From contig CAXWPL010000001.1 of the NCBI GenBank assembly GCA_963666215.2, forward strand, positions 448,001 through 512,000: 64,000 nucleotides of DNA, in the 5' to 3' direction. Below the pieces are notes generated by a model that worked only from the letters and a program-made list of their open reading frames with translations, had not been told where the DNA came from and searched no databases. The DNA is from Acidobacteriota bacterium. Its GTDB lineage: Bacteria > Acidobacteriota > UBA890 > WLXD01. Below, in pieces: positions 1 through 64,000 of this stretch (position 1 is the stretch's first letter; each line of letters begins with the position of its first letter). The position numbers and the translations under genes are program-made.

Positions 1-646
1 GGAACAGCGGCATCACGTTCAGGCAGCGGTCGTCCGCCGTGAGTCCGAGCGTATTGCGGATGTTGCCCGCCGACGCGCACAGGTTGGAGTGCGTCAACGG
101 CACGATTTTCGGACGCGACGTGGTACCCGAGGTGTGCAGCACCAGAGCTACATCGTCGGGCGCTGCCGCACCCCCTGCGGCAGTCAGCTCGCCCACCGAG
201 TGGCCGGTGATCTCGAAGCTACCGGCCGGGGCTCCCTCCGTCACCACAATCTCGAGCACCGGTACGCCGGCAGCAGCAGCGGCGGCGCGTGCCGGCGAAG
301 TGGAGCCCTGCTCGACGAGCAACGCGCGAGCGCTGAGATCTTCCAGATAGAACTCGAACTCCTGCTGCCGATACCCCGGATTGAGCGGTGCCGTTGTCGC
401 ACCGCTGGCAACCGACACGAAAGCGCTCGCCATTTCCGGTCCGTTGGGCAGCACAATCGCCACGCGATCGTTACACCCTATGCCGCTCGCGTTGAGCGCC
501 GCGACCACTCCCCCCACATGCTCGCGTAAAGCCCCATAGCTCATCGGTGGCCGACCGGGGGAGGTGAGCGCGATGGCCTCTCTATGCCCGGAGTCCAGCA
601 ACGAAGCGACTGTGGCCCTGCTAGCGGGGCTTGCGCTATCCGACAT
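1..646 (-). CDS. Acyl-CoA synthetase / AMP-binding enzyme (oxalate-CoA ligase-like), 5' part; runs off the window
   Basis: Not in the ORF track. Manual translation from ATG 646 (RBS GGAGGGG) gives DRVAIVLPNGPEMA...APLNPGY...DVALVLHTSGTTSRPKIVPLTHSNL...DRCLNVMPLF, which includes the AMP-binding motif. Confidence 0.9.
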   Translation of the reverse strand, partial: MSDSASPASRATVASLLDSGHREAIALTSPGRPPMSYGALREHVGGVVAALNASGIGCNDRVAIVLPNGPEMASAFVSVASGATTAPLNPGYRQQEFEFYLEDLSARALLVEQGSTSPARAAAAAAGVPVLEIVVTEGAPAGSFEITGHSVGELTAAGGAAAPDDVALVLHTSGTTSRPKIVPLTHSNLCASAGNIRNTLGLTADDRCLNVMPLF

Positions 647-684: not shown

Positions 685-2157
685 ATGCTACAGGAGCGGT
701 CCACAGGGGGCCAACCGACTGACCCTTGTGTAATCCCATCGAGTGGATATCTTGACGCCATGTTTCCTCTCGGAGAGCCCGGCAGCAGCGAGATTGCGGT
801 GCGTGCCGGCCGGGGTTGGAGTGGCTGCATGAGACGAGCCGATTTGGCCGCCTTCGCTGGAGTATCGATCGTCGGGCCCTTCCTCGCCTGCGGGTTCTTC
901 TTCGGCCTCAACTACCTCGCGCTCGGTGTGGACCCGGAGCTCGTCGCCGAGAAGGTGCGGGCAGGCTTCGAGGAGGGGCAACTGTCGTACCAACGAACAA
1001 CGGCCAACAGCGCCCTCGGCGGCCATCCTTGGGCTGACTGCGAGACCCTCACGTTTCTGGTCGTCCGACCGGAGCGGCGACTGAGAATGGCGATCTCCGG
1101 CGCCAAACTGCACTCGCAGGCAGGCGGTCATCCGTGCGAGCGCTTGGGAAATTTCGTGTATGGCCGCGCCTCCGCCGACGGTAGTTTCTTTTTCCATCGA
1201 TATTGGAATGGTCATCGCGCGCTCGCGGGACTCGCACTGCGGTGGACGTCGGTTGAAGGCCTGCGGAACCTCTCTCGCTATGCCACGTACATCGGTCTGG
1301 CGGTACTGTTCTTGCTGCCAGCTGTCGCCCTCGCCAGCACCAGGAACCGCGCCGCCCCGGCCGAGACACGATTCCGCATCGCTTTCCTCGCTCTGGTGTT
1401 GGGGCTGTACCTGTTCTTTGCAATTCCCTACTACGCGCCGACCTTCTCGCACTCACCTTCCCATCTGGTGCTCTTCGGCTTCCTTGCGCTGGCGTTCGCG
1501 GTGAATCTGCATCGCGTCCGTCTGGTCACGGCGCTCGCTATCGCCTGTGGGTTCGGCTGCCTCACGGCGTACTTCGAGTACCTGATCGGCGCCACGCCTC
1601 TGGGGCTCGGCGCGATCATCGCTGTGCTGGCGCTGCAGCCCAAGCATGCCGCCAATCCCCGCGCTGTGATCGAACGCGCCGCGCTCATGTGCGCATGCTT
1701 TTCCGCGGCGCTGGTGGCCTGCTTCGCGATCAAACAGGTGGTGGCGACGCTCGCCTTCTACGGCGAGGCCTGGTCGCAGTTCTTCGCGTCGTTGTTTCAC
1801 CGCATCGGCGGCAGCGACTACCCCGCCGGTGAGTCGTTCGAGCGCTTGCTCAGGAGCAGCGCGCAGCTCGCCTGGGGCTCCGACAGCGTCGGCCGATCGC
1901 TGTTTGTGCTCTCGCCGTTGCTGTTTCTAGGCGCATACCTGTTCGCTCGCCGCCGGTGCCGGCTGACCAACGAGACACTCGCTGTCGACATGCTGCTGGG
2001 CTCGGCTCTGGTGATTCCGCTGTGGTACGCGGTTTTCTGGCAGCACACAACACAGCACGCGTCCTTCATGATTCGCATCGTCGCCTGGCCTTTGTCGCTG
2101 GCATTGGCTGCGATCGCGTTCGGGGCCGCTACGCGTGCCGTCCGCCCGATCAGCTAG
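685..2157 (+). CDS. Polytopic membrane protein, unknown function (true start possibly about 829)
   Basis: 490-aa ORF with about 10 hydrophobic segments; motifs HRYWNGH and WYxxFxQHTxxH. Confidence 0.7.
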   Translation: MLQERSTGGQPTDPCVIPSSGYLDAMFPLGEPGSSEIAVRAGRGWSGCMRRADLAAFAGVSIVGPFLACGFFFGLNYLALGVDPELVAEKVRAGFEEGQLSYQRTTANSALGGHPWADCETLTFLVVRPERRLRMAISGAKLHSQAGGHPCERLGNFVYGRASADGSFFFHRYWNGHRALAGLALRWTSVEGLRNLSRYATYIGLAVLFLLPAVALASTRNRAAPAETRFRIAFLALVLGLYLFFAIPYYAPTFSHSPSHLVLFGFLALAFAVNLHRVRLVTALAIACGFGCLTAYFEYLIGATPLGLGAIIAVLALQPKHAANPRAVIERAALMCACFSAALVACFAIKQVVATLAFYGEAWSQFFASLFHRIGGSDYPAGESFERLLRSSAQLAWGSDSVGRSLFVLSPLLFLGAYLFARRRCRLTNETLAVDMLLGSALVIPLWYAVFWQHTTQHASFMIRIVAWPLSLALAAIAFGAATRAVRPIS

Positions 2158-3755
2158 CTCCCGGCAATGGCGGCGCGGATTGCCTTCACCGTTTTGTCGA
2201 CGCGGAACTGGATGAGCTTGCGGCCGATGTCTTGGGTCCACTCCAGGTCGGCAATGCTGACGCCGTTGATGCTCGCCTTGCCGGCCTCGACCCGCTGCTC
2301 ATAACGCACGCTCTCGGGAGAGACCGTCGACTGCATGGCGGTCAGCCAGAAGAAGTCGTGGAAGCCCTCGTTGCCCTCCTCGATACCGAGATCGTTGGTC
2401 ATGTACTCGATCATGTCGTCAACGGCGTAGAGCTCGGGGATGAAGTGGATCCTGCTCTCCGATCCCGCTCCCCAGGCTTCGTTGAGACGATCGGCAACAA
2501 CTCGCATCCCGTCCTGGTTGCCGCCGCTGGCGCCGATGAAGATGATGTTTTCGAAGCCATGGGCCTTGAGGCTCGAGGCAACGTCCTCGAGCATCATCTC
2601 GAAGGTCTCCTCGCGGACGCTGATCGTGCCCGGGTAACGCATGTGCCCAGACGGCGGGTCGTGACTGCCCTCGGGGACGAGCTTGATGATCGACGAGCAC
2701 AACGCATCGCCCAGCGCGCGGGCAATTCCCTCGCACAGGCCGGTGAGCTCGTAGTTGTGCTTCCCCGTTGCGACGTAGGGGCCGTTCTGCTCGAGGCCTC
2801 CGGTGGAGACGATGATGATTTTCTTGCCGGCGGCCATCTCGTCGCGCACTTCGATCCAGGTGAGCTCCTCCATCCAAACCGAGTCGAGCGCCGGAATCGG
2901 GTTGGGCATCGCCAGCTCGCGGCGCGTGGCCTCCTCGCGTTCCGCCGACTGGGCAATGAAGCGCTTGCCGTTCTCGAGTGCGGCGCTCTCGGTAACGATG
3001 ATCGCGCGGAAGCCCTGGCGTAGCCGCCGGCCGATGTCGTCGACGCCCGCGGTGACGCCGCAGGCAACCTGCTCGGCGCGGCAAGCCGCCAGGATCGTCT
3101 GGATGGCCTCTTCGACCGCCTCCATGTCGCCGTCATAGGCGCGACGTAGATCACCCGGTCCGGCGAACATCACGCTGAGGCCCGGTGTGGCTGCGATCTC
3201 TAGGGCGTTCGCGACTCCCGCCTTGTCTTCGACGATGAGCATGTTGACGTAGTCGCCGTCGGGGTTCGCCGGCCACACATTACCCGCGGTGGCGTCGTGC
3301 AGCGCCGCCACCGCAGCGGCGGCTTCTTCGGCCGTTGTTACATGCGGGAAGACGATCGCCGACACACCGGCCTCGACACCCTGCCGAACGTGGTCACGCG
3401 CGGCGTCGAGTGCGTCGCCAACCGGCGGTACGCGCAAGATCAACGGCCAGTTGGCCGCCGCGCTGGCGCCACCAACAGCTCGGTGCATGGCTTCTTTATA
3501 GGAGCGCATCGTCGCGATGTCGAAAGGACCGTTCTCGAGCGAATAGAAGACGAAGTCGGTGTTGCTGTTCTCGACGATCGCCGCGCCACCGGCTGCGCTC
3601 TGTTCGCCGGGAAACACGCCCAGCACCGCGCCACCGCCGGCCAGCATTCGCGCGATCTTGTTCGAGTGGTCATCGTCACTGCCGGCCGCGAGTCCGGCAC
3701 CCGCTACGCCGGCGACCACAACGCTGACCGCCAACATCAACAGCTTGGGTCGCAT
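2154..3755 (-). CDS. Exported fusion of an HpcH/HpaI aldolase-citrate lyase-like domain and a creatininase-family domain
   Basis: Start MRPKLLMLAV (signal-like). N-domain SLENGPFD..LRVP..IVFPHV..IVED..FAGPGDL; C-domain WMEELTWIEVRD..GGLEQNGPY..GKHN..PEGSH..PGTI..SGGNQ. Confidence 0.85.
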   Translation of the reverse strand: MRPKLLMLAVSVVVAGVAGAGLAAGSDDDHSNKIARMLAGGGAVLGVFPGEQSAAGGAAIVENSNTDFVFYSLENGPFDIATMRSYKEAMHRAVGGASAAANWPLILRVPPVGDALDAARDHVRQGVEAGVSAIVFPHVTTAEEAAAAVAALHDATAGNVWPANPDGDYVNMLIVEDKAGVANALEIAATPGLSVMFAGPGDLRRAYDGDMEAVEEAIQTILAACRAEQVACGVTAGVDDIGRRLRQGFRAIIVTESAALENGKRFIAQSAEREEATRRELAMPNPIPALDSVWMEELTWIEVRDEMAAGKKIIIVSTGGLEQNGPYVATGKHNYELTGLCEGIARALGDALCSSIIKLVPEGSHDPPSGHMRYPGTISVREETFEMMLEDVASSLKAHGFENIIFIGASGGNQDGMRVVADRLNEAWGAGSESRIHFIPELYAVDDMIEYMTNDLGIEEGNEGFHDFFWLTAMQSTVSPESVRYEQRVEAGKASINGVSIADLEWTQDIGRKLIQFRVDKTVKAIRAAIAGS

Positions 3756-60319: not shown

Positions 60320-61527
60320 TTCCAGACCCCAAACGCAAGAAGCGCGCGGTTGGCCTAAGTGTAATTGCCAATCTATCAATACTTGGCGTCTTTAAGTACT
60401 TCGACTTCTTCGTTGGAACGCTGGAGTCGGCGCTTTCGTCATCCGGAATCGACGCAACTCTCCTTCATCTCGATATCGTGTTGCCAGTCGGAATCTCGTT
60501 CTACACGTTTCAAACGATGAGCTACGCCGTCGACCTGTATCGAGACAAGGTCGACGCGTGCGACGACTTTGTGGATTTCGGCTTGTATGTCGCGTACTTC
60601 CCACAGCTGGTCACCGGTCCGATAGAGCGAGCCAGCCGGCTTCTTCCAGCCCTCCGGAAGGCGCGAACGTTCGACATTGATCAGTTTTCTCGTGGCATAG
60701 GTCTCATTCTGAGCGGCCTGGTCAAGAAGGTCGACGTCGCAGATGGGGTTGCCGCCCTTGTTAGCGACGTTTTCTCGCACGAACACCCCAGCGGGGTCGA
60801 AGTTGCTGTTGGACTGGTTTGTTTTGCTGTGCAGATCTACGGCGACTTCTCGGGATATTCTGACATAGTGAGGGGAGTGTCGAAGCTGCTCGGCATCGAG
60901 CTGATGACGAATTTCCGTCAGCCTTACTTCTCACCGAATCCCTCAGAGTTCTGGCGCCGATGGCACATCAGCCTGTCGAGCTGGCTCCGAGACTACCTCT
61001 ACATTCCGCTCGGCGGAAATCGAAACGGGCCCAGGAACACCTACCGAAACCTGATGCTCACCATGTTACTTGGGGGGCTGTGGCACGGAGCCGCATGGAA
61101 CTTCGTTCTATGGGGGGCTTTTCAGGGCGGGCTGCTCGGCATTCACCGGTGGTTAGTAGGTGCCGCTCCGGAGTCTCGACCGAACAATCGTTGGGCGTCT
61201 CCGCTCAAAATGCTCCTCTTCTTTGCGGTCACGTGCTATGGCTGGCTGCTTTTCCGGGCGCGGTCCTTCGAACAGATTGCCAGCATGACTTCCGCTCTTT
61301 TCGATACAACGAGCCTAGCTTTTCGGCTTGGCACTCCGCGATTGGGCGCCGTCGTCGGGATTCTCACGTTAGTGCCGCTTGAAATCGCCCAGTTCCGAAG
61401 CGACGAAGCCGCCGTCTATTGGCGTTGGCCAACATTTGCGCGCGGCGCGTTTTTCGCAGCGCTGATTGTCGCCCTTCTTCTCGGATTGGATAATGCCCCG
61501 GAAACGTTTATCTACTTCCAGTTCTAG
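60320..61527 (+). pseudogene. MBOAT O-acyltransferase (AlgI/DltB-like), N-terminus missing
   Basis: FKYFDFF, LPVGISFYTFQ, FPQLVTGPIER, DFSGYSD, FWRRWHISLS.WLRDYLYIPLGG, GLWHGA, FIYFQF. Confidence 0.9.
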
Positions 61528-61884
61528 ATCACCTGGGTCCGATGGCCCCGCGTTTTGGCGTGGACTCTGACGTTTCTGTTCATCGCGGATTTCGCGATCG
61601 GCAGGATGGTTGGAGTTCAACCGGGGACGCCTCCGGGATTCTTTTCTGCGTACTTCGAGCGCGGGCGCTCGGTGGAATCCCGACTCCGCGACAACATCGG
61701 GCCAGACGGAGGGGCCTTCGATCTCATCTATACGATCGGGTGGGTTCATTGGAGACCATTGCGAGCAGCCGCTTGGGGGATGTCACAGGCTCTGTCATGG
61801 CGCCAGAGTCCCCGACATCTGGAGCGACGGGGACCTTACACACGTGCCGCTGCTCGTCAAGCTGCCGAGACAGGCGGTAGTGTC

Positions 61885-62769
61885 TCAGTTTGATTTACTT
61901 TTCCTCGGCCCCTTCGGACCCGGCTTCTTCGGCATCGGTGCGGATGCGTCCACCAGACCCACGATCCACTCAGCGTCACGCACCGTCTTGCTCACACCAG
62001 ACTCCATAGCCGGCGTGACCCTAAGCGTCTTGTGGATGCGGCAGAAGTTGTACCAGACCGTGTACAGCGCAACCATGTGCACGTGATTCTCGATCTTCTT
62101 GGAGAAGGCGTTGGTGAGCCGCGTGAACCGCCGCATGTGCATCCTCATCGAGAGATTGTGGCGCTCGACGTAGGACGTACTGATATGTGCCTCGTCCGGG
62201 TCTCCCTGCACTCGTAGCCGCTGGCTTCCCTGGCACTTGGCGGGGCTGTAGCGGCGCTGCGGCTCCGGGTCCGGGCCATAGACCTTCTGTAACATCGCGT
62301 AGTCGATCTCGTGTGCGAACGCATCTTCGACCGCTTCCAGGTACATCCTGTGCCCGTCGGTCGTTAGCTGGATGCGGTTGCTCAGCCGTCCTGCGAGGTC
62401 CTGCATGAACTCGGTAGCCGTACCGACATCGCGTGGGCCAACCCGCCACGATGCGATGAGCTTCGTATCCGCACAGATCCCCGTGAACGTCCACACGTCG
62501 CCGTAGCCAAACTGCCCACGCTTGTCCTCGGGCACGTTCTTGGCTTTCGAGTAGCAGAACGCCCAGATCTCGTCGGCCTGCACTCGCTTGCACGGTAGAT
62601 CTCGCACATGCTCATCGTGATACGACGCGCAAGCGTTGCCAGCGTCCACCAGCAGCTTCGAGATGGTGTTGATCGACACACCGGTGATGCGAGTTATGGC
62701 TCGAAGCGAAAGGCCTTCGCATAGCAGGTCTAGAATCTGCGCTCGGGTTTGTGTCGGTAGCTTATTCAT
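61885..62769 (-). CDS. IS1-family DDE transposase with an N-terminal HTH
   Basis: VQADEIW, GDVWTF, QLTTDG, STSYVERHNLSMR..RRFTRLTNAFSKK; stop lies inside the TIR. Confidence 0.95.
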   Translation of the reverse strand: MNKLPTQTRAQILDLLCEGLSLRAITRITGVSINTISKLLVDAGNACASYHDEHVRDLPCKRVQADEIWAFCYSKAKNVPEDKRGQFGYGDVWTFTGICADTKLIASWRVGPRDVGTATEFMQDLAGRLSNRIQLTTDGHRMYLEAVEDAFAHEIDYAMLQKVYGPDPEPQRRYSPAKCQGSQRLRVQGDPDEAHISTSYVERHNLSMRMHMRRFTRLTNAFSKKIENHVHMVALYTVWYNFCRIHKTLRVTPAMESGVSKTVRDAEWIVGLVDASAPMPKKPGPKGPRKSKSN

Positions 62770-62775
62770 ACCATC

Positions 62776-62804
62776 ATTATATGAATTTTTATGCTTACCG
62801 TCAA
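62776..62804 (-). promoter_or_regulatory. Near-consensus sigma70 promoter of the transposase (predicted leaderless)
   Basis: TTGACG-N17-TATAAT-N6-ATG. Confidence 0.75.
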
Positions 62805-62869
62805 GAATGAATGGTCAGATAATTGAATCCCGGTTGCTTGCCGTGGCGGTCCTCGTGGTACAATAGGCC

Positions 62870-62968
62870 AATAGCCGATGTAGAAATGCATCGTTTCTCC
62901 TGTTTAGCTGACGGTGAGAACATGGCTTGGGGTCGGGCGCGGATGCAACCGCGGCCCGGCCCGTTTTC
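62870..62968 (+). ncRNA. Putative structured small RNA inside the IS1 element
   Basis: Extended -10 TGgTACAAT (62856-62864); hairpins at 62876-62893 (GAAA loop) and 62895-62920; terminator-like stem 62930-62962 followed by TTTT. Confidence 0.5.
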
Positions 62969-62970
62969 GG

Positions 62971-63363
62971 TTAGGTACCCACCAAGGAATAGTCTCCGCT
63001 ATCTCCCTTTCTGATCATGCCTTTAGCGTTCATACGCCACATCTGAGTCGAAACTCGAGTCGATAGAGGCGTTTTCTTGTCGTCCAGGTAACCTTGGTTG
63101 ATTAACTCCTGCGCGACCTCTGAGGATTTAATCGGACCCATTTCTTTAAGCACGATCACGATAGCATCATTCAGGGTCTCCGACCTGATGAAGCTACCAT
63201 TCATTCCTGCTACCGACGCAGAGGATCCACTGAGAAGTTCGCTCAGCGCCGCATGTTGACGCTTGCAGGCGTCGAGTTTTTGCGTCAGTTTCTCGAGCGT
63301 ATCCTGCAGGTTATCTTCGGCTGCTCTTAGCTCATCTAGCGTCCGGTCGCTGAATAATTCCAT
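62971..63363 (-). CDS. Passenger protein: N-terminal coiled coil plus a putative winged-helix C-domain
   Basis: 130 aa, visibly lower GC; heptad-like N-terminus; IVIVLKEMGPIKSSEVAQEL..G..GDYSL. Confidence 0.7.
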   Translation of the reverse strand: MELFSDRTLDELRAAEDNLQDTLEKLTQKLDACKRQHAALSELLSGSSASVAGMNGSFIRSETLNDAIVIVLKEMGPIKSSEVAQELINQGYLDDKKTPLSTRVSTQMWRMNAKGMIRKGDSGDYSLVGT

Positions 63364-63464
63364 ATCCGATCCTCATACCCGTCCCGATGTCTGATATCCC
63401 AGTCTCAATGTCGGATAGCGAAACCATATCCGGTTAGGTGCTCCGGCGCAACCTTCCCATTCCT

Positions 63465-63515
63465 AAAAAAAAACGGGGGCCCATCCATCGCCGACGAGAT
63501 GGATGGGCTACCCGT
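63465..63515 (-). terminator. Intrinsic terminator after the small basic passenger gene
   Basis: Minus strand ACGGG-TA-GCCCATCCATC...GATGGATGGGC-CCCCGT followed by a run of 9 T. Confidence 0.8.
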
Positions 63516-63545
63516 GAGATCCTTACGTTTTCTATCCTACGATAG

Positions 63546-63791
63546 TCACTTCCCCCATCGCGCCGCGGCCGCCTTCCTCGAAATCTCGGATCGACGTTCA
63601 GGTGATAGTTTTGCAGCTCGCTGACGACCTGGCCGCTCTCAAGCGCCTGATCGTCCCAGCTTCACAGCGGCACGGTCTTTACCGTCGTCCACGGATTCCT
63701 CTTCACGCTGCCCGGTGGCGATCTCCATGACGCGCACGGCGTTCTGGGTCACGCCAGCAGGCCGCTTCTGTCCCTGCGGTCCTTTTGGCAT
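63546..63791 (-). pseudogene. Small basic IS-associated protein with an in-frame TGA at 63639-63641
   Basis: Not in the ORF track: MPKGPQGQKRPAGVTQNAVRVMEIATG..KLGRSGA*ERPGRQRAAKLSPERRSEISRKAAAARWGK*. Confidence 0.7.
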
Positions 63792-64000
63792 GGTACCGAT
63801 ATCCTAGGTGGCGACTAGCCGTGCTGTCTAGTAGGTAACGTCATCGCAGCAATTCAAACTGAGACACTACCAGACAGGCGGGAGGCGAGCGCGTCGATAA
63901 GGAATTCGGGAACTACCGACTGCGACCGGTGATGGAGCAGGTTCTCCGCGGCGGCGAGAACTCAGAAGCTTGGTATGACGAGATCCCGACCGGAGGGCCC

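Follow-up and report, generated by a model that had tools for sequence, protein, structure and literature searches.

What occupies the short interval between the transposase gene and the neighbouring 130-amino-acid (aa) gene of an IS1-family insertion sequence (IS) element in the Acidobacteriota bacterium contig CAXWPL010000001.1, and which of its two strands matters? Within the 64,000-nucleotide (nt) stretch of this contig that we analysed (hereafter the window), a first-pass annotation made from the sequence alone had flagged positions 62856-62968 as an unannotated small RNA (sRNA) of ~100 nt on the plus strand, convergent on the 130-aa gene, and had proposed an antitoxin, regulatory or protein-binding role for it. 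We find that the minus strand, which this annotation missed, is part of the answer: the candidate RNA is exactly antisense to the Shine-Dalgarno sequence, the start codon and the first codons of a short leader open reading frame (ORF) whose conserved part ends in Arg-Gly-Pro-Pro (RGPP). The reading that we favour, and to which we give roughly even chances, is that transposase expression would be gated by an arrest-peptide leader whose ribosome-binding site lies under a cis-antisense sRNA. The RGPP leader peptide is the more novel half of this two-strand switch; for the plus-strand RNA, a regulatory role is likely and an antitoxin role unlikely.

Two opposing features in the flagged interval

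The block spanning this interval was found, by BLAST together with a covariance model, in four DNA copies with 82-95% identity that are distributed over two genomes of one bacterial family: the window itself (G000:C1), L005 and L051 (both G000:C4, ~3 kb apart) and L008 (G006). A fifth copy is known as a called 62-aa protein (P0002) from another contig, with the same ORF start. Over the core of the block (62844-62905), the window is identical to L005, L008 and L051 at 57/62, 59/62 and 51/62 positions, respectively. Each of the four copies has an IS1-type transposase on one side and the remainder of the element on the other, and the two transposase types involved share 112 of 271 residues (41% protein identity). 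L051 is a complete element with inverted repeats of its own, and the transposases of L005 and L008 are disrupted, that of L008 being interrupted by an IS3-like element. L005 and L051 are two type-B elements (G000:C4, ~770200-775200), both with CCACCAGTG beside the left inverted repeat.

On the minus strand, AGGAG(A/G), a spacer of 5 nt, ATG and 16 codons follow one another in 4/4 DNA copies, and the resulting leader ORF is located upstream of, and co-directional with, the transposase gene in all copies. The 16-residue peptide reads MHFYIGYWPIVPRGPP in three copies and MRFHIGHLPILPRGPP in L051. Ten sites vary across leader codons 1-16; five of them are third positions, all synonymous, and two of the five that change a residue constitute the compensated pair of hairpin 1 described below. 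Codons 9-16 (PI[VL]PRGPP) contain four synonymous sites and a single conservative Val/Leu site. RGPP itself is present in 4/4 DNA copies and in P0002, with two of its codons varying only at synonymous third positions and the other two invariant. The tails after RGPP are unrelated across the four DNA copies (RQATG, HSIAL, LLRGP and CLPCP), and leader length ranges from 25 codons (L008) through 41 (window), 48 (L051) and 62 (P0002) to 161 (L005), leaving 9, 25, 32, 46 and 145 codons after the motif, the last through an in-frame fusion. The leader of the window ends in a TGA (62768-62766) that shares bases with the transposase ATG (62769-62767). The motif is preceded by just 12 residues, which hold no N-terminal signal or membrane segment, and the minus-strand peptide lacks a conserved hydrophobic body.

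In the parts of PMC12992588 used here, RGPP is described as the most robust arrest sequence among RAPP-like motifs, refractory to EF-P, and as the most excluded tetrapeptide across bacterial phyla and proteomes. The same source gives an R-[A/G]-P-P core with an irreplaceable Arg, has the stalled ribosome hold the third RGPP codon in its P site and the fourth in its A site, and reports that RAPP-like arrest tolerates varied N-terminal contexts (PMC12992588, Fujiwara et al.). A frame whose only conserved part ends at the A-site codon is, as far as sequence can tell, how an arrest leader is expected to look.

On the plus strand, the extended -10 box TGgTACAAT, both hairpins, the AGC/GCT closing pairing, the G+C-rich stem and the final TTTT are all present as first annotated, and the feature ends 3 nt from the stop of the 130-aa gene, the minus-strand stop codon of which starts at 62971. 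RNAfold reproduced exactly these helices on the plus strand of 62856-62968 (-52.1 kcal/mol, z = -4.03, 0/200 shuffles as good), compared with -35.7 kcal/mol, z = -1.75 and 10/200 shuffles as good for the minus strand. The G-U pairs of the plus-strand fold turn into A-C or C-A mismatches on the minus strand, and given the weaker minus-strand fold, the argument that these pairs favour the plus-strand RNA holds. One correction applies to the flagged interval: if TGgTACAAT is the promoter, transcription would begin near 62870 rather than 62856, giving an RNA of ~95-98 nt and leaving the outer stem (62864-62870/62923-29) mostly outside the transcript. The TGgTACAAT site was not listed by a strict promoter scan because it has no good -35 box, and the long stem at 62930-62962 was not listed by a terminator scan because only four T follow it.

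These plus-strand features are shared by the copies. Plus-strand folds of all four have z values of -3.9 to -7.5, with 0/200 shuffles as good in each, and the -10 boxes of the other three copies (TGgTACGAT, TGgTACGAT and TGgTAAGAT) give TGgTAnnAT in 4/4. A T-tailed hairpin is found on the plus side in 4/4 copies (window, L005, L008 and L051), the minus strand after the stem reading CCCCAAGCC or CUCAAAGCC. With the T-run confined to the plus side in every copy, the last stem is not just a bidirectional terminator, an objection that the first-pass annotation had raised against its own candidate. Promoter and terminator are consensus matches only, extended -10 and T-tailed hairpin in 4/4 without a good -35. 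A structured, terminated RNA, as originally proposed, is the best reading of the plus strand, from which a small folded RNA is probably transcribed.

Comparison of the copies also shows how the stems change. Across the three close copies, four terminator pairs are altered in both arms; the L051 terminator has a different sequence and is farther off, past an inserted transfer RNA-like (tRNA-like) element. In hairpin 1 of L051 the loop-closing A-U has become G-C, a compensated pair, and its hairpin 2 retains 8 bp, with both the 3' arm and the loop altered. Two wobble-preserving changes are seen among the copies in hairpin 2. In the pairing count for the body hairpins, 48/48 cells are paired, with one compensated pair among 12. 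Hairpins 1 and 2 are thus conserved in sequence rather than proven by covariation.

The inverted repeats of the element enclose the candidate sRNA, which is encoded opposite the transposase message and over a translation start region. From its predicted start it overlaps leader codons 1-7 together with the leader ATG and Shine-Dalgarno sequence; the transposase ATG, ~100 nt away, is not covered. A scan of 61000-64000 on both strands, with E up to 10, matched no Rfam family to the interval, so the Rfam comparison that had been suggested gives the RNA no family. One malK-II row at 62769-62808(-), scoring 23.3 bits against a gathering score of 52.9, lies outside the interval and was judged to be a chance match. 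Feature coordinates are collected in Table 1.

Table 1. Features of the element and of the interval between its two genes (window coordinates).
Feature	Position	Strand	Remarks
Whole IS1-family element, ~2 kb	61876..63871		terminal inverted repeats and 8-bp direct repeat
Transposase gene, 294 aa	61885..62769	-	Pfam DDE_Tnp_IS1, 28.5 bits (cut-off 24.1)
Sigma-70-like promoter TTGACG-17-TATAAT	62776..62804	-	11/12 consensus matches; consensus match only
Leader ORF, 41 codons	62766..62891	-	conserved codons 1-16 (62891-62844), MHFYIGYWPIVPRGPP
RGPP codons CGA GGA CCG CCA	62844..62855	-	block conservation stops one base beyond
Shine-Dalgarno AGGAG	62897..62901	-	5 nt upstream of leader ATG; AGGAGG in L005 and L051
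Extended -10 box TGgTACAAT	62856..62864	+	over leader codons 10-12
Candidate sRNA, ~95-98 nt	62870..62967	+	start predicted from -10 box; fold -47.6 kcal/mol, z = -4.6
Hairpin 1, 7 bp, GAAA loop (CGATGTA-GAAA-TGCATCG)	62876..62893	+	antisense to leader start codon and codons 1-5
Hairpin 2, loop UAGCU	62895..62920	+	5' arm UUCUCCU, an anti-Shine-Dalgarno sequence
Putative intrinsic terminator, 13-bp stem, one bulge, then GTTTT	62930..62967	+	long G+C stem 62930-62962, TTTT 62964-62967
Accessory gene, 130 aa	62971..63363	-	long N-terminal helix and C-terminal winged helix (AlphaFold2 model)

Distribution of the block and recurrence of its layout

The exact block is rare. BLAST found it in 2/11 genomes of the family and 2/26 of the class, with none in the other 24 class genomes; in a phylum sample, 12/401 genomes gave matches at E <= 0.01, only G000 and G006 being real, while the other ten matches are 19-37 nt long (E >= 4.8e-4) and are not true copies. 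Covariance model R1, run over 26 genomes, added one new true copy, L051 (E = 1.6e-8); its other 16 rows (E >= 0.01), some of which overlap known copies, were left unused. The block had no match in a plasmid collection and a pattern scan of viral contigs gave 0 matches; four metagenome-contig and two species-genome matches from the pattern scans share nothing with the block beyond the pattern and were judged to be due to chance. One of the two block-bearing genomes is also present in a sponge metagenome, and a sponge-metagenome DNA run holds 62586-62923 without mismatch.

The layout of the leader is more widespread than the block. IS1-type transposases occur in 67/401 genomes of the phylum sample, and we examined 70 regions of 800 nt upstream of such transposases. 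A short ORF reaching R[AG]PP within 25 codons was present in 7/70 regions on the sense strand and 1/70 on the antisense strand; when a Shine-Dalgarno sequence was also required, these counts became 5/70 and 0/70, and three control motif sets under the same requirement gave 0/70 on either strand. With a broader set of motifs published as partly permissive, the counts were 8/70 sense and 1/70 antisense. Excluded from the 70 were L069 and the second G166 match (unpublished genome), L081 (91 nt upstream), the contig-end matches G055:C88, G140:C56 and G204:C30, all partial matches, two of three tandem copies in G003 and two of four copies in G317.

The recurring peptides are unrelated to that of the window and include the groups MIARAPP and M[ST]NP[IF]..RxPP, among others. 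MIARAPPSAHP comes from a G006 element with two copies, the transposase of which shows 91% identity to that of L051, and further leader peptides are MSNPIGFFHHTRAPP (L082), (V)SNPIRGPP (L088) and MTNPF..RDPP (L111), with two more besides. This recurrence of R[AG]PP leaders is support, not proof.

In two of these loci, a promoter-like sequence also faces the leader. The antisense strand of L082 carries TTGACG-16-TGgTATGAT (10/12 consensus) inside the leader ORF, its -10 lying over codons 9-11, with T-tailed hairpins ~95 nt downstream; that of L088 carries TTGACG-17-TAGGAT (9/12 consensus), again inside the leader ORF, and the whole L088 arrangement is contained within 24-nt inverted repeats. The predicted antisense RNA folds more stably than its complement in both cases (-32.9 vs -22.4 kcal/mol in L082, -48.5 vs -34.3 kcal/mol in L088). 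An antisense-side terminator was also detected in L062. Relatives of the L082 control region were found in 1/15 genomes, the only one being L082 itself.

Several related IS1 elements contain tRNA-like genes: L051 at 1575-1650(-), L062 at 1975-2050(-), L091 at 495-570(+), L008 at 2156-2230(+) and L082 at 2555-2627(-), adjacent to the leader in 4/5 loci overall. ARAGORN assigns them to Ser (UGA, GGA, CGA), despite a length of 75-76 nt, and in one case to Ala(AGC). The L051 gene scores 31.8 bits with the Rfam tRNA model (gathering score 29) and has an enlarged anticodon loop; no close copy of it was found elsewhere in its genome, and no tRNA-like gene was found in the element of the window. These genes may be processing signals or cargo tRNAs of odd identity.

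Proposed mechanism and rival explanations

Under the reading that we favour, both strands would be functional, and the interval would be a control region between the two genes of an IS1-family element. On the minus strand, a strong ribosome-binding site would start the leader peptide, and a ribosome translating its 16 conserved residues up to Arg-Gly-Pro-Pro would be expected to arrest when Pro15 occupies the P site and Pro16 the A site. On the plus strand, the extended -10 promoter within leader codons 10-12 would fire back over the leader start, giving an RNA of ~95 nt with two hairpins and its own terminator just before the accessory gene, and perfectly complementary to the first ~7 codons of the leader, its AUG, its Shine-Dalgarno sequence and the 5' untranslated stretch. 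By pairing with the transposase-strand transcript, the sRNA would block ribosome loading on the leader, or the duplex would be cleaved; either way it would set how often ribosomes enter the leader and stall there, and so gate transposase translation. In the window, leader and transposase may be linked by termination-reinitiation at the overlapping TGA/ATG, and in the sister elements by a ~150-nt leader ahead of a transposase with its own Shine-Dalgarno sequence. The anatomy, its conservation and its recurrence in unrelated sequence are observed here, and the behaviour of RGPP is published; from these we infer that both RNAs are made, that stalling takes place in this leader, that transposase synthesis is affected in one direction or the other, and that copies may act on one another in trans.

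Extending this beyond the block is more tentative. It is possible, if somewhat doubtful, that an IS1 subgroup gates its transposase by an RGPP, RAPP or RxPP arrest leader whose ribosome-binding site is covered by an element-encoded antisense sRNA, some members adding a tRNA-like processing signal and a winged-helix protein.

A number of observations weigh against the two-strand switch. Here, 9 to 145 codons follow the motif and only 16 residues lead up to its end, whereas most published arrest peptides of the RAPP/RGPP type bear localisation signals, with the motif close to the C-terminus (PMC12992588, in the parts used here); one of the seven S. lividans peptides tested in that work is also without a predicted signal. 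The transposase promoter sits within the non-conserved tail of the leader ORF and thus downstream of its conserved part, so most transposase mRNA may bypass the leader, whose main relevance may be to transcripts reading through from the accessory gene. When the ~250-nt leaders of L051, L005 and L008 were folded (z = -1.8 to -3.3), no common switch structure emerged; a specific switch, in which CUCC after the stall site would pair with the transposase Shine-Dalgarno sequence, was rejected as the folds of these three leaders disagree. Contigs of two metatranscriptome runs cover 63167-63390 only, none of them extending over the block, and a third run, presumed to be RNA, contributed no contig; such contigs carry no strand or end information and are uninformative on an RNA of ~95 nt.

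There are only four DNA copies of the block, in two related genomes, and these are not independent; a protein search for a homologous leader-ORF family gave P0002 as its one match. The blocks of L005 and L008 (transposase type B) are nearer to that of the window than to L051 of their own type, and since the trees of block and transposase conflict, the high block identity may in part come from recombination between co-resident elements rather than from selection. Four sites vary among the three close copies, and neither reading is affected by any of them: all are third codon positions that are also loop, wobble or -10-middle positions. The check by homologues and covariation that had been suggested for the RNA was therefore answered in part: copies exist and terminator pairs are compensated, but covariation in the body hairpins is not significant (118/500 shuffles score as high), and covariation that sits in the terminator is alone no proof of a regulatory RNA.

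The recurrence has its own limits. Several of the 70 regions are copies of one element (L062/L091; L061, which is the same as L051; the G366 copies) and the regions are therefore not independent; few independent lineages contribute to the count, and the motif was noticed after the ORF had been seen. Strict scans detected only an antisense promoter in L084, only an antisense-side terminator in L090, and neither in L111. A close relative, L002, lacks the block.

Could the transposase strand alone be functional, as a 5' leader with an RGPP ORF, the big stem being a 3' stabiliser or processing site and the sRNA unmade or a by-product? Such an arrangement would account for the Shine-Dalgarno sequence, ATG and 16 codons ending in RGPP in 4/4 copies and for the R[AG]PP leaders of other elements; the minus-strand hairpins would sequester the Shine-Dalgarno sequence and AUG, the tRNA-like element of L051 and L062, a possible processing signal, is just upstream of the leader on the same strand, and the contigs of the two runs, none reaching the block, show no plus-strand transcript. 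We nevertheless consider it unlikely, given that the minus-strand fold is weak (10/200 shuffles as good), that conserved G-U pairs become C-A mismatches on this strand, that the T-tract is on the plus side only in 4/4 copies and also in L062 and L082, and that the extended -10 is kept in 4/4, with full antisense promoters inside the leaders of L082 and L088.

Conversely, the plus-strand RNA might be trans-acting or protein-binding, for example bound by the winged-helix neighbour, with the minus-strand ORF a chance frame. Conservation that extends 27 nt upstream of the predicted RNA start and stops right after the RGPP codons would then be unexplained, as would the R[AG]PP leaders at the same place in unrelated elements; in L005 the block lies beside an unrelated 316-aa ORF in the opposite orientation, and the RNA matches no Rfam family. 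We find this reading improbable, even though hairpins 1 and 2 are near invariant while the terminator covaries, which would suit base-specific recognition, and the best structural matches of the neighbour are Z-DNA/RNA-binding Zbeta/Zalpha domains (weak, E = 3e-3).

Decidedly improbable, in our view, is that nothing here is regulatory, the stem merely shielding the accessory gene from antisense transcription and the rest reflecting recent exchange between copies. The disagreement between the block and transposase trees does suggest recombination, and the four copies in two genomes have no others in the 401-genome phylum sample or in the metagenome and species-genome scans. Recent exchange, however, fits poorly with a terminator that has diverged at four compensated pairs next to a core still 92-95% identical, with a conservation boundary that coincides with the codon boundary after RGPP, and with the recurrence of the same layout in unrelated sequence.

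A small ORF with an antisense structured RNA over its ribosome-binding site is the usual layout of type I toxin-antitoxin systems. To such a cargo, in which the minus-strand peptide would be the toxin and the plus-strand RNA, with its own terminator and convergent on the ORF's ribosome-binding site, the antitoxin, the pair stabilising the element, we give very little credence on sequence grounds, PADLOC and toxin libraries not having been searched, as only the first 16 residues are conserved (in frames of 25, 41, 48, 62 and 161 aa with unrelated tails) and the conserved end is a stalling motif instead of a hydrophobic helix or membrane segment. Of the roles first proposed, regulation fits the two-strand switch, and the antitoxin goes unsupported whether the minus-strand peptide or the 130-aa protein is taken as its partner, the latter being a long helix and winged helix that does not resemble a toxin.

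The element, its accessory gene and known systems

Membership of the element in the IS1 family is borne out by a DDE transposase, terminal inverted repeats (GGTAGTGTCTCAGTTTGA..., 61876-61899 and 63848-63871; 24 nt, 92% complementary) and a flanking 8-bp direct repeat, AGACAGGC, at 61868-61875 and 63872-63879. Target duplications of 8-9 bp are typical of this family. The best NCBIfam model for the transposase, transpos_IS1, scores 61.5 bits, under its cut-off of 100; the protein is a distant IS1-family member with a helix-turn-helix and without a zinc finger. In minus-strand order the element holds a short ORF with a terminator, the accessory gene, the flagged interval and the transposase gene. 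Upstream of the accessory gene and inside the element are a promoter-like site at 63801-63830(-), a 50-codon ORF at 63639-63791(-) starting MPKGPQGQKRP, and a minus-strand T-tailed stem of 11 bp at 63479-63508(-). An isolated 111-nt fragment, G000:C4:340602-340713, is 99% identical to the transposase-side end of the element (61876-61986) and may be a solo end or a deletion remnant.

Just 6 nt separate the end of the -10 box of the transposase promoter from the transposase ATG, so that a leaderless transposase mRNA is predicted. Strong sigma-70-like promoters with a -10 ending 6-8 nt before the transposase ATG are found in the window (62776-62804(-)), L002 (~2310-2350) and L084 (2320-2348(-)), and these sequence matches suggest that leaderless transposase mRNAs may occur in this IS1 subgroup. 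L002 (G000:C2:240559-244369) is a sister IS1 element whose transposase gene has 77% DNA identity to that of the window, and it carries three other genes upstream of the transposase, one encoding a DUF7689 protein.

The 130-aa protein received no family name from Pfam or NCBIfam, and neither did the other accessory proteins. Its AlphaFold2 model has a mean predicted local distance difference test (pLDDT) score of 73, and Foldseek ranks generic winged-helix domains highest (best E = 3e-3); between the window and L008, the accessory proteins are 33% identical. A gene of similar build (~128-150 aa, with an E/K/L/Q-rich N-terminus) is located directly upstream of the leader region, on the transposase strand, in L082, L088 and L062. 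In L082 and L088 (150 and 128 aa) the likeness is one of size and N-terminal composition, and in L062 the order of the N-terminal make-up differs. With genes of the same build at the same place in these three loci, the 130-aa gene, which the first-pass annotation had called a passenger, is better regarded as a regular accessory gene of these elements. The metatranscriptome contigs introduced above match the 5' part of this gene and ~25 nt upstream with 0-1 mismatches; the gene may thus be expressed in nature, DNA carry-over being an alternative source of the contigs. Relatives of the protein (28-34% identity) also occur in L026-L032 (G003, G004 and G005), up to five per genome, without an IS1 transposase or the block and mostly head-to-head with a 95-aa ORF starting MKRGQLVVCRMA; this arrangement may be another mobile or repeated unit.

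Antisense control of transposase starts and RAPP/RGPP arrest peptides are each already established. In the literature we found no report that joins antisense control with an arrest peptide, or that places an arrest peptide ahead of a transposase; the word 'transposase' occurs 0 times in the main text of PMC12992588 and in eight of its nine supplementary files. If true, the arrangement proposed here would put the RAPP/RGPP motif to a new use and give mobile elements their first arrest-peptide switch. It would also couple transposition to the condition of the translation machinery, in that a ribosome held on the leader would decide whether transposase is synthesised. Confirmation would also give a compact two-strand switch of ~130 bp that could be moved to other genes, its practical limit being rarity: among the genomes searched, the exact block is in two genomes of one poorly known family only.

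The closest antisense counterpart is RNA-OUT of IS10/Tn10, reportedly a stable stem-loop antisense RNA whose promoter is just inside the coding region and fires across the transposase start and ribosome-binding site. Like RNA-OUT, the candidate sRNA is element-borne and antisense, with a putative promoter within an ORF and directed back over the translation start of the message. The element here is IS1-like whereas IS10 belongs to the IS4 family, there is no sequence or Rfam relation, the start covered is that of a 16-codon leader rather than that of the transposase, and the candidate RNA has two hairpins and a separate putative intrinsic terminator. A second parallel is Asr9, a very stable antisense sRNA of Pseudomonas putida, encoded directly before the transposase gene of ISPpu9 and acting on the 5' untranslated region of that gene (PMC8450116). 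Asr9 and our candidate are both opposite-strand sRNAs upstream of a transposase and complementary to a structured leader that hides a ribosome-binding site; ISPpu9, in contrast, is an IS110-family DEDD element, and the parts of PMC8450116 used here describe no leader peptide for it. Because Asr9 increases translation of its transposase, neither sign can be taken for granted for the effect in our element.

Like the RAPP/RGPP peptides (ApdA, ApdP, ApcA, the SecM type and the seven of Streptomyces lividans), the leader is a small ORF preceding a gene that is read in the same direction. It also shares with them R-[AG]-P-P as its most conserved part, a tolerant N-terminal context and, as far as the published descriptions used here extend, the absence of anything conserved after the motif. 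Those peptides mostly possess signal or membrane segments that sense export; here the downstream gene encodes a transposase, and the window's leader, with just 12 residues ahead of the motif, is too short to be released by a pulling force. If confirmed, RGPP stalling would work from a peptide of at most 16 residues without an export signal.

Classical IS1 limits its transposase through the InsA/InsAB' programmed -1 frameshift. Common to both systems are a gene for a small DNA-binding protein ahead of the catalytic part and a translational event that limits, or would limit, the transposase. Our element differs in having a single-ORF transposase without a frameshift and an upstream gene that encodes a separate winged-helix protein, the proposed limiter being a stalling leader combined with an antisense RNA. 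If confirmed, this would show how single-ORF IS1 relatives that lack the classical frameshift keep their transposase scarce.

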